Under the pieces are notes generated by a model that was not told the origin of the DNA, made no database searches, and saw only the letters and a list, made by a program, of their open reading frames with translations. The position numbers and the translations under genes are program-made. This document shows positions 53,335-53,769 of a DNA stretch of 64,000 nucleotides, piece by piece. Every line of letters starts with the position of its first letter. The first letter of the stretch is position 1. The DNA lies in the NCBI RefSeq assembly GCF_057098645.1, contig NZ_CM169472.1; one strand, written 5' to 3'.

Positions 53335-53424
53335 GCAGAATATTTTGCTTAAAAATGACGTTGGCCAACGCGGGCAGATAACACGAAATCCTGCGAACTG
53401 GCAAAACCCAAGTGAATAAAAGTA

Positions 53425-53457
53425 AAAACCCCGTTTGTTGGTTGCAAACGGGGTTTT
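53425..53457 (+). terminator. strong hairpin in the R-Rz spacer
   Basis: aaaaccccgtttg...caaacggggtttt perfect 13-bp stem flanked by A- and T-runs. Confidence 0.4.
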
Positions 53458-53626
53458 ATGTTTATGGCAGTAAGCTATGGGAGGCTGCCTTGATTGATTT
53501 TAGCAAACTGATTAGGGAGTTGCGACTCATGATTAGTCAATTACCAAACTGGAAATTTTTGCTGGTCTGGAGCATCCCTTTTTTATGGGTAGTATCCCAG
53601 TGAATTGTGGCAATTAAGGGGTAGCT

Positions 53627-53758
53627 ATGTCAGACAAACTCATAATGCTGGCGAAGATCCTCTGTGTAATCGTCGGCATTTCATTTTCACTAATGCTGGT
53701 TGCTCTTTTTCTTTCCATGGGCTGGATGATGTTGTCTTCGTCGGGGCTGCTGGGGTGA
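53627..53758 (+). CDS. small hydrophobic peptide (43 aa) upstream of Rz
   Basis: SD aagggg then ATG; product [43 protein letters not shown]. Confidence 0.3.
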
Positions 53759-53769
53759 GCATAAACCGA

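Follow-up and report, generated by a model that had tools for sequence, protein, structure and literature searches.

In phages lambda and 21, the endolysin gene R and the spanin gene Rz are contiguous, and the late genes of lambdoid phages are transcribed by a Q-modified polymerase that is terminator-resistant across the late operon, as for lambda Q. A different order is found in phage P2, where lysA, a membrane-protein gene that affects the timing of lysis, lies between the endolysin gene K and the spanin genes lysB and lysC. R and Rz are also contiguous (overlapping) in the Qin and DLP12 prophages of Escherichia coli K-12, with no spacer, no hairpin, and no small open reading frame (ORF) between them. 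The locus analysed here lies in an E. coli prophage within a stretch of 64,000 nucleotides of contig NZ_CM169472.1 (assembly GCF_057098645.1), hereafter called the window, and consists of a phage-21-type lysis cassette with the holin gene S, R, Rz, and the embedded Rz1, in which R and Rz are separated by an interval of 435 bp (53335–53769). An original prediction, made from the letters of the window alone, had described this interval as an unusual extra spacer holding a strong hairpin and a hydrophobic 43-codon ORF. Its coordinates proved to be correct, with R ending at 53334 and Rz starting at 53770, and both the perfect 13-bp hairpin with its A-run and T-run and the ORF with its Shine–Dalgarno sequence (SD) were recovered, the former in the sequence and in the folding predictions. 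In our comparisons, the hairpin appears as a probable terminator and the ORF, very probably, as a real and already catalogued membrane-peptide gene tied to Rz, both within a slot that is widespread among related prophages.

The 43-codon ORF extends from an ATG at 53627 to a TGA at 53756–53758 and encodes a peptide with a grand average of hydropathy of 1.68, the top 19-residue window (residues 11–29) reaching 2.89. A full-length match to phrog_4906 was obtained (E = 3.1e-21, residues 1–43 on profile positions 7–49 of 49), and the related proteins formed 119 clusters, all of them from Escherichia, the complete ones being nearly all of 43–44 aa; the E. coli proteins of 43 aa were 74–98% identical to the window peptide. 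Prophages of the Shiga-toxin-producing strain E2865 and of two further strains match the entire region at 100% identity, and at the E2865 locus the ORF is annotated by the Prokaryotic Genome Annotation Pipeline (PGAP) as WP_001280927.1. It is also present, unannotated, between the antirepressor gene ant and Rz in phage 933W. Allele comparisons were carried out on 131 matched stretches (fetched IMG/VR loci plus annotated loci, about ten of them counted on both strands). The frame was intact in 125 of them, and 43 codons were kept in 23 of the 25 distinct nucleotide alleles (27 of 29 before removal of the both-strand duplicates). The C-terminal third differed by 25–40% between alleles without any indel, and the flanks were full of them; those alleles without an ATG at the start position have one a codon upstream. 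Pooled over ten alleles, the ratio of nonsynonymous to synonymous polymorphism (pN/pS) was 0.49 in frame versus 0.78 and 1.21 out of frame. In addition, the homologue MMGWLMISDKLITLVKSLCVLVGISFLVMLVAIFFSTAWRVLTLSGLVG corresponds to XECs191, reported as a "novel small gene" by ribosome profiling (RIBOseq) of O157 strain Sakai (Huecker et al. 2017, PMC5597208). In LB, its transcriptome and translatome showed 30.0 and 12.6 reads per kilobase per million mapped reads (RPKM), with a ribosome coverage value (RCV) of 0.43 and a coverage of 0.55, and it was classed as real by the authors, as a predicted inner-membrane protein with one transmembrane (TM) helix (PMC5597208). This gene is now annotated as ECs_1966 in prophage Sp10 and as ECs_5722 in Sp9.

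The proposal that this small ORF is an additional lysis-associated membrane protein fared unevenly: the phrog_4906 match, the intact alleles, the pN/pS values, the PGAP annotation, and the XECs191 profiling data all argue for a real gene, while it is its position alone that suggests a role in lysis. Like a holin or an antiholin, it combines a TM segment with a site in the lysis cassette, having one strongly hydrophobic segment and lying between R and Rz. It has none of the marks of a spanin, being 43 aa long, nearly all hydrophobic, without lipobox, and too short for a periplasmic domain. The linkage of the ORF, which is to Rz and not to R, was overlooked in the original prediction. Nearly all of the 131 stretches have the ORF placed after the endolysin gene (or ant) and before Rz, although no R-type endolysin was located upstream in about nine, some of these being truncated. 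Rz started at most 16 nt past the stop of the ORF in 83 of the 131 (63%), the distance being 11 nt in the window. An extra 191–227 nt preceded Rz in 42, and the loci inspected among them carry further small TM ORFs there, the last one abutting Rz; in the individually inspected loci, the stop of the last small peptide gene before Rz lay at most 16 nt from the Rz start. The ORF remains next to Rz when it follows ant, as in 933W and the Sakai prophages Sp9 and Sp10, and also at a locus (L010) with an M15-peptidase endolysin and a different holin. At the nucleotide level, an SD-like GGGGTGA of Rz, with a long spacing to the AUG, lies inside the last codons of the ORF, and a weak predicted stem pairs the stop region of the ORF with the Rz AUG; both are consistent with translational coupling between the two genes. 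The Rz frame itself is open for 55 codons upstream of its ATG, through the 43-codon ORF (window 53605–54228), which explains the over-long "Rz" annotations in several database records (e.g., 573 nt in phage H-19B and 525 nt in Sakai, ECs_1092) and likewise why the rare frameshifted alleles of the small ORF continue into the reading frame of Rz.

The hairpin following R is formed by the arms AAAACCCCGTTTG (53425–53437) and CAAACGGGGTTTT (53445–53457), with six G–C pairs among 13, and its folding energy was −21.5 kcal/mol on the plus strand and −18.4 kcal/mol on the minus strand. A consensus scan scored it as terminator-like on both strands, where the stem is followed by a U-tract, UUUU AUGUUUAU on the plus strand and UUUUU ACUUUUAUU on the minus strand; the first four U can pair with the A-run too. 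A search for perfect stems of at least 12 bp with loops of 3–10 nt, for which 0.05 were expected per shuffled window, revealed it as the sole perfect inverted repeat of at least 13 bp within the 64-kb window. The only other one of at least 12 bp, at 55880–55912 (GCAAATGTTAAC, 9 nt, GTTAACATTTGC), is located near the HNH endonuclease/terminase region. Unusual structure was confined to the stretches with the hairpin, with folding z values of −3.2 and −3.4 for stretches of 146 and 161 nt that include it, and of −0.56 and −0.28 for the remainder of the spacer, which is not unusually structured.

Comparison with other prophages favours the terminator reading of the original prediction, as the hairpin is conserved in hundreds of them. 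Among 33 sequence variants from about 150 loci, the stem was kept in nearly all, with one mismatch in a few alleles, and the usual variation consisted of loop changes or of an A to G change in the 3′ arm (U–A to U–G). The stem of Salmonella phage SPN3UB differs at two pairs: T:A has become A:T at one, a compensatory double change, and T:G at the other, a wobble. In 933W, PA2, and Lys8385Vzw, an unrelated hairpin, GGCACC-GTAAT-GGTGCC (GGCACCGTAATGGTGCC, then the tail TTTGTCATTT), with a GC-rich stem and a T-run, occupies the same distance past the conserved flank of R, so the structure has been kept there while its sequence was replaced. A Rho-independent terminator is thus the probable identity of the hairpin on comparative grounds. 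No minus-strand gene requiring its minus face was found, the nearest downstream minus-strand elements (an HnrS-like region and a ylcI-like gene) being located beyond Rz; thus, the bidirectional shape may be incidental. A scan of positions 51000–56000 against Rfam 15 (E ≤ 1) gave VR-RNA as its sole match (E = 0.35; 20 bits, with the gathering threshold at 100), which was discarded as a spurious match driven by the hairpin. Term-seq and dRNA-seq data exist for O157 Sakai (Sy et al. 2020, PMC7547250). In this strain, a copy of the hairpin is located in Sp4 (NC_002695.2, 1184826–1184858), whose late genes are on the minus strand, and the other hairpin type comes after R in Sp9 (end of R at 1777986) and in Sp10 (end of R at 1945284).

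The idea that this spacer is an unusual extra did not stand. Megablast searches detected homologues in 2043 of 5426 complete E. coli genomes, at up to 10 copies per genome, with at least 80% of the spacer covered in 702 of them, and homologues were also present in 234–316 phage records, mostly Shiga toxin (Stx)-converting phages and also one Salmonella phage. The premise that R and Rz are usually contiguous holds for K-12 Qin and DLP12 and fails for the prophage group of the window, in which the sequence comparison depicts the R–Rz junction as a regular recombination and moron slot of mosaic structure. In both the phage and the E. coli searches, the first 129 nt of the spacer were matched independently of its last 222 nt, and alignment of eight loci showed three modules. 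The left module (spacer positions 1 to about 130) comprises the 3′ flank of R and the hairpin and was common to all eight loci. The middle one has alternative forms: that of the window, a 60-aa ORF (WP_001303555) in, for example, O157:H7, or ant, as carried by Sakai Sp9 and Sp10 and by Stx phages (e.g., 933W, PA2, and Lys8385Vzw). The right module consists of the 43-codon ORF, followed by Rz. A literature search on the accessions and on the R–Rz junction returned nothing relevant. With its wide distribution, its existing annotation, and an earlier published description of one of its genes, the interval has little novelty.

The middle module of the window contains a second small ORF, also missed by the original prediction, which begins with TTG five nt after a GGGAGG SD and has 37 codons. 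It matched phrog_6632 (E = 3e-11) only at profile positions 2–33 of 45, and its C-terminal half, which in the full-length family carries a TM segment and the end GQIRWW, has been replaced. The intact 45-aa version, (M)FDFSKLIREIRVMAEKLSTWKFILIWLVFVIMASGYFIGQIRWW, was found in H-19B and SPN3UB, with a GTG start and a stop located 1–2 nt before the Rz ATG. Between these two phages, pN/pS was 0.28 in frame, compared with 0.83 and 1.65 in the other two frames, and synonymous changes run across GQIRWW, the substitution pattern of a family that is clearly coding. Its hosts include E. coli, E. albertii, E. fergusonii, and Salmonella, and 389 IMG/VR loci carry it. A sample of 80 of these showed the GTG start in all 80, a hairpin about 40 nt upstream in 78, and the stop 1 nt before the Rz ATG. 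When the 45-aa alignment was used to search for related loci, all copies recovered were near-identical ones from E. coli, usable for such counts of architecture and not for covariation. No purifying signal was seen for the 37-codon copy of the window. The sequence that replaces the C-terminal half of the 45-aa gene also precedes the 43-codon ORF in the ant-carrying phages and at locus L135, where it does not belong to an intact ORF. From these alignments, the 37-codon ORF is probably a recombination remnant.

A small stem-loop, GGCAG...CTGCC, precedes this ORF and holds its SD in the loop. At the same position, other sequences also form a hairpin, namely CCTTG/CAAGG in the allele-B loci and SPN3UB and GACT/AGTC in H-19B. 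Stem-loops that overlap or present the SD of the next small ORF after the terminator were likewise observed at equivalent sites in four of the collected loci (L002, L009, L133, and L134), with three unrelated sequences, and this post-terminator element may, according to the folding predictions, be one of translational control. A third family of tiny TM ORFs, ending in AFAIRIVAIAVLVWAIRWW followed by the stop, was observed at L140 (2722–2835), in Sakai (ECs_1094), and at L005 (3055–3141). It lies directly 5′ of Rz in other prophages and has the IRWW-stop junction in common with the 45-aa family.

From the observed anatomy, conservation, mosaicism, coding signal, and Rz linkage of the interval, we infer termination, read-through by Q-modified polymerase, translational coupling, and some role in lysis, and we give the resulting explanation a probability of about 55%. 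It combines an insulating terminator with a late-expressed inner-membrane peptide coupled to Rz. The 3′ flank of the R mRNA would end in a Rho-independent terminator hairpin able to act both ways, which would stop, or insulate against, unmodified RNA polymerase, as in leaky or lysogenic transcription, and which, after processing, could stabilise the 3′ end of the S–R message. Q-modified transcription from pR′ would pass the hairpin, with Rz and Rz1 still made at lysis and no attenuation of late expression. The 37-codon ORF would be the leftover of a 45-aa gene whose 3′ half was swapped by recombination with a second module, made up of the 43-codon gene and Rz/Rz1. The 43-codon peptide would be produced from the late transcript in translational linkage with Rz, as suggested by the stop 11 nt before the Rz AUG and the GGGGTGA in the last codons, and, as an inner-membrane factor, would assist or modulate the spanin or holin step during lysis. 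A bolder and rather unlikely version would make the single-pass peptides that precede Rz (the 43-aa XECs191, the 45-aa KLIRE...IRWW, and the AFAIRIVAIAVLVWAIRWW families) an unrecognised spanin-associated class that couples Rz translation, binds the TM domain (TMD) of Rz, and holds or times the i-spanin until holin and endolysin have acted.

Several observations weigh against the terminator-and-peptide explanation. The U-tract on the plus strand is interrupted (UUUUAUGUUUAU). Frameshifted copies of the 43-codon ORF were present in six of the 131 matched stretches, and the constraint on it is only moderate, at a level typical for a small TM peptide, with a ratio above 1 for some pairs (e.g., the window versus L137). 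The RIBOseq signal of XECs191 is low, stems from a multi-copy sequence, and was obtained in uninduced cultures, so it is supportive and not conclusive. A profile search of 1.8 billion representatives found only 28 close clusters, from Escherichia prophages, and nothing outside the family, and searches of the peptide against Pfam, NCBIfam, and PHROG gave no match to a holin, antiholin, or spanin family. The 43-codon ORF is missing from lambda, 21, Qin, and DLP12, which lyse or are organised without it, and is therefore not essential. Finally, one exception to the linkage with Rz was seen, at L135, a locus with a GH108 endolysin and ANT, where a 44-aa homologue is followed by a 51-aa lipobox protein (LLVGC; 2667–2822), with no recognisable Rz/Rz1.

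The moderate constraint could also mean that the terminator alone is functional and that the 43-codon ORF, like the 37-codon one, is a decaying by-product of module swapping, left open by chance and recent ancestry, its ribosome signal being translation noise. The 37-codon ORF of the window is probably such a remnant, and the very high nucleotide identity in the first two thirds of the 43-codon ORF is what recent ancestry predicts; the pN/pS of just 0.5–0.6 overall, above 1 for some pairs, the frameshifted alleles, and the narrow taxonomic range fit as well. However, length, start codon, and SD were kept, without indels, across alleles 25–40% apart in the C-terminal third, the in-frame pN/pS is below that of both other frames, and the ORF outlasts repeated recombination, always by Rz, in addition to its published ribosome-profiling signal (PMC5597208), so we regard decay as possible but unlikely. 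As one possible, weak source of such a relic, the 5′ end (TMD) of a displaced Rz gene was considered from a weak likeness to the N-terminal TMD of lambda Rz (z = 3.5 for the local score; p = 0.004 before correction for 30 comparisons). The likeness is not significant after 30 tests. Of the five Rz 5′ ends compared at the nucleotide level, four gave no significant result (z = −0.6 to 1.6) and that of SPN3UB gave z = 4.1 (p = 0.005), and this origin was left as weak.

The conserved flank of R raises another alternative, in which its 90 nt and the hairpin would be a trans-acting small RNA (sRNA) derived from the 3′ untranslated region (UTR) and released from the S–R transcript, as for other prophage sRNAs of enterohaemorrhagic E. 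coli (EHEC). The flank is 83–95% identical in Stx phages, 933W included despite its differing hairpin, and about 76% identical in SPN3UB, with invariant blocks such as GGATAACACRAAATC preserved even where the hairpin has been replaced and in Salmonella. Hfq-bound sRNAs are also abundant at fixed slots near the lysis genes of EHEC prophages (AgvB/AsxR, Pas, HnrS). This conservation is opposed by the lack of an Rfam family match at E < 0.3, by a predicted structure upstream of the hairpin that, by inspection, has no covariation support, and by the absence of an Hfq peak from cross-linking and analysis of cDNA (CRAC) in the R–Rz intervals of Sakai Sp4, Sp9, and Sp10 (Tree et al. 2014, Table S2), a screen that excluded sites within 100 bp of a coding sequence; the nearby peaks of that study are EcOnc35/52 upstream of S and EcOnc11/12, corresponding to HnrS, downstream of Rz. 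We consider an sRNA of this kind distinctly improbable. A type I toxin–antitoxin-like pair is more improbable still. It would oppose the hydrophobic peptide to an antisense RNA of about 180 nt running from a minus-strand promoter-like site (53633–53604; CTGACA, 18 nt, TG-n-CACAAT) to the minus face of the hairpin, with its terminator tail UUUUUACUUUUAUU, and it agrees with the hydrophobic nature of both small ORFs. The region, however, has no excess of promoter-like matches (three found versus 4.6 expected), and neither SPN3UB nor H-19B conserves the site, so that this candidate was rejected. Both ORFs are, moreover, sense-oriented inside the late operon and directly coupled to Rz, and no toxin or defence family was matched in Pfam, NCBIfam, or PADLOC.

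The features of the cassette and of the interval are collected in Table 1.

Table 1. Positions in the window of the lysis genes and of the elements between R and Rz.
Feature	Position	Strand	Basis
Holin gene, P21 holin S family	51901–52113		Pfam/NCBIfam/PHROG family searches
R endolysin gene, GH24-type phage lysozyme, hydrophobic N-terminus	52801–53334	+	Pfam PF00959 Phage_lysozyme, E = 3e-24
Conserved R 3′ flank (3′ UTR)	53335–53424	+	Identity in Stx phages and SPN3UB
Perfect 13-bp stem, 7-nt loop, A-run before, T-run after; probable bidirectional Rho-independent terminator	53425–53457		Terminator scan, folding, comparison
Predicted small stem-loop GGCAG...CTGCC, loop with SD GGGAGG (53479–53484) of the next ORF	53466–53489	+	Folding prediction
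TTG-start 37-codon ORF, probable truncated/recombinant copy of the 45-aa "KLIRE...GQIRWW" membrane-protein gene	53490–53603	+	phrog_6632 match, alignments
SD AAGGGG of the 43-codon ORF, 5 nt 5′ of ATG	53616–53621	+	Read from sequence
43-codon gene, predicted single-pass inner-membrane peptide, phrog_4906/WP_001280927.1/XECs191 family	53627–53758	+	Profile match, annotation, alleles
Rz i-spanin gene	53770–54228	+	Pfam PF03245 Phage_lysis, E = 9e-40
Rz1 o-spanin lipoprotein gene, +1 frame of Rz, lipobox VVSAC	53981–54187	+	ORF list

The counterpart of R at the identical E2865 locus is annotated as lysozyme, and Rz1 is annotated at the equivalent site in 933W and Sakai. Within the R 3′ flank, an 8-codon frame, ATG...GGA TAA (53355–53381), has no SD upstream; the window shares the start codon, length, and stop of this frame with 933W, H-19B, and SPN3UB, while the interior is variable. 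The 15-nt flank block GGATAACACRAAATC was also scanned over 298 Gb of contigs, the 120 matches listed coming from unrelated taxa; the pattern is too short for a data set of that size. S and R are separated as well, by a 687-bp insert (52114–52800) with a minus-strand ORF (52369–52683, phrog_1853) whose annotation is that of a hypothetical protein of 90 aa. Sakai Sp4 (ECs_1097) is arranged in this way too, and a plus-strand gene of the YdfR family occupies the place in other prophages. Directly 3′ of Rz, a 74-aa ORF (54252–54476) matches only the middle of phrog_2571 (positions 100–172 of 291) and may be a gene fragment.

Two neighbouring regions resemble known sRNA loci. Positions 54492–54671 (minus strand, about 54540–54610) are 94% identical to the region between Rz and the ylcI-like gene in Sakai Sp9, and the window probably carries, judging by this identity, a copy of HnrS. 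Also known as EcOnc12 in Sakai, HnrS is a prophage sRNA of 66 nt that depends on Hfq and is reported to act as a repressor of Hha (bioRxiv 10.1101/2025.11.27.690950). The intergenic region between the esterase and holin genes (51615–51900) is 93% identical to a Sakai Sp4 sequence with the Hfq-bound EcOnc35 peak and corresponds to the "sialic acid esterase – PasA/PasC – holin" slot described for the Pas sRNAs. With hairpins at 51651–51622 (minus strand) and 51826–51852 (plus strand), it is likely to contain a convergent sRNA pair.

In conclusion, if the terminator-and-peptide explanation is true, the lysis cassettes of Stx and lambdoid prophages would be more modular than the textbook S-R-Rz/Rz1, with a terminator inside the cassette, between the genes for holin and endolysin and those for the spanins, and with Rz accompanied by a translated membrane peptide, an arrangement of interest for studies of lysis timing and, hence, of Shiga-toxin release. 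The interest that remains lies in the notion that i-spanin genes may regularly be accompanied by genes for small TM peptides.

Compared with the cassettes of lambda, 21, Qin, and DLP12, that of the window has the same P21 holin S family, GH24 endolysin, and Rz/Rz1 in the same order, whereas in those phages and prophages R and Rz overlap or abut, with neither hairpin nor small ORF. The hairpin resembles bidirectional Rho-independent terminators in its GC-rich perfect stem between an A-run and a T-run, which gives a hairpin with a U-tract on both strands; it is located, however, within a late operon whose genes all run in one direction and not between convergent genes, and no minus-strand gene converges on it. 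As a membrane protein encoded between endolysin and spanin genes, P2 LysA is a precedent for an accessory lysis-timing factor at this place, although it has no sequence relation to the 43-codon peptide and is a much larger, multi-spanning protein, so that the functional analogy is speculative. The R-ant-Rz organisation of the 933W type is closer, as the R–Rz slot is likewise interrupted and includes the R 3′ flank, a terminator-like hairpin after R, and the same small ORF before Rz, but it carries the 570-bp antirepressor gene ant, absent from the window, and a different hairpin sequence. H-19B and SPN3UB, with the order R-hairpin-45-aa ORF-Rz, have the same R 3′ flank, terminator-type hairpin, and first 27 codons of the small ORF as the window; in them, the intact GTG-start 45-aa ORF adjoins Rz, whereas the window has a TTG start, 37 codons, and the 43-codon ORF next to Rz. 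Finally, XECs191 belongs to the same family as the window peptide (MSDKLI...GISF...W..L..SGL.G), occupies the same site immediately 5′ of Rz, and is also a predicted single-pass inner-membrane peptide. The window allele is about 75% identical to it and starts at the ATG without the MGWLMI extension, and while the XECs191-family gene follows ant in Sakai Sp9/Sp10 and 933W, that of the window follows the remnant of another small ORF.

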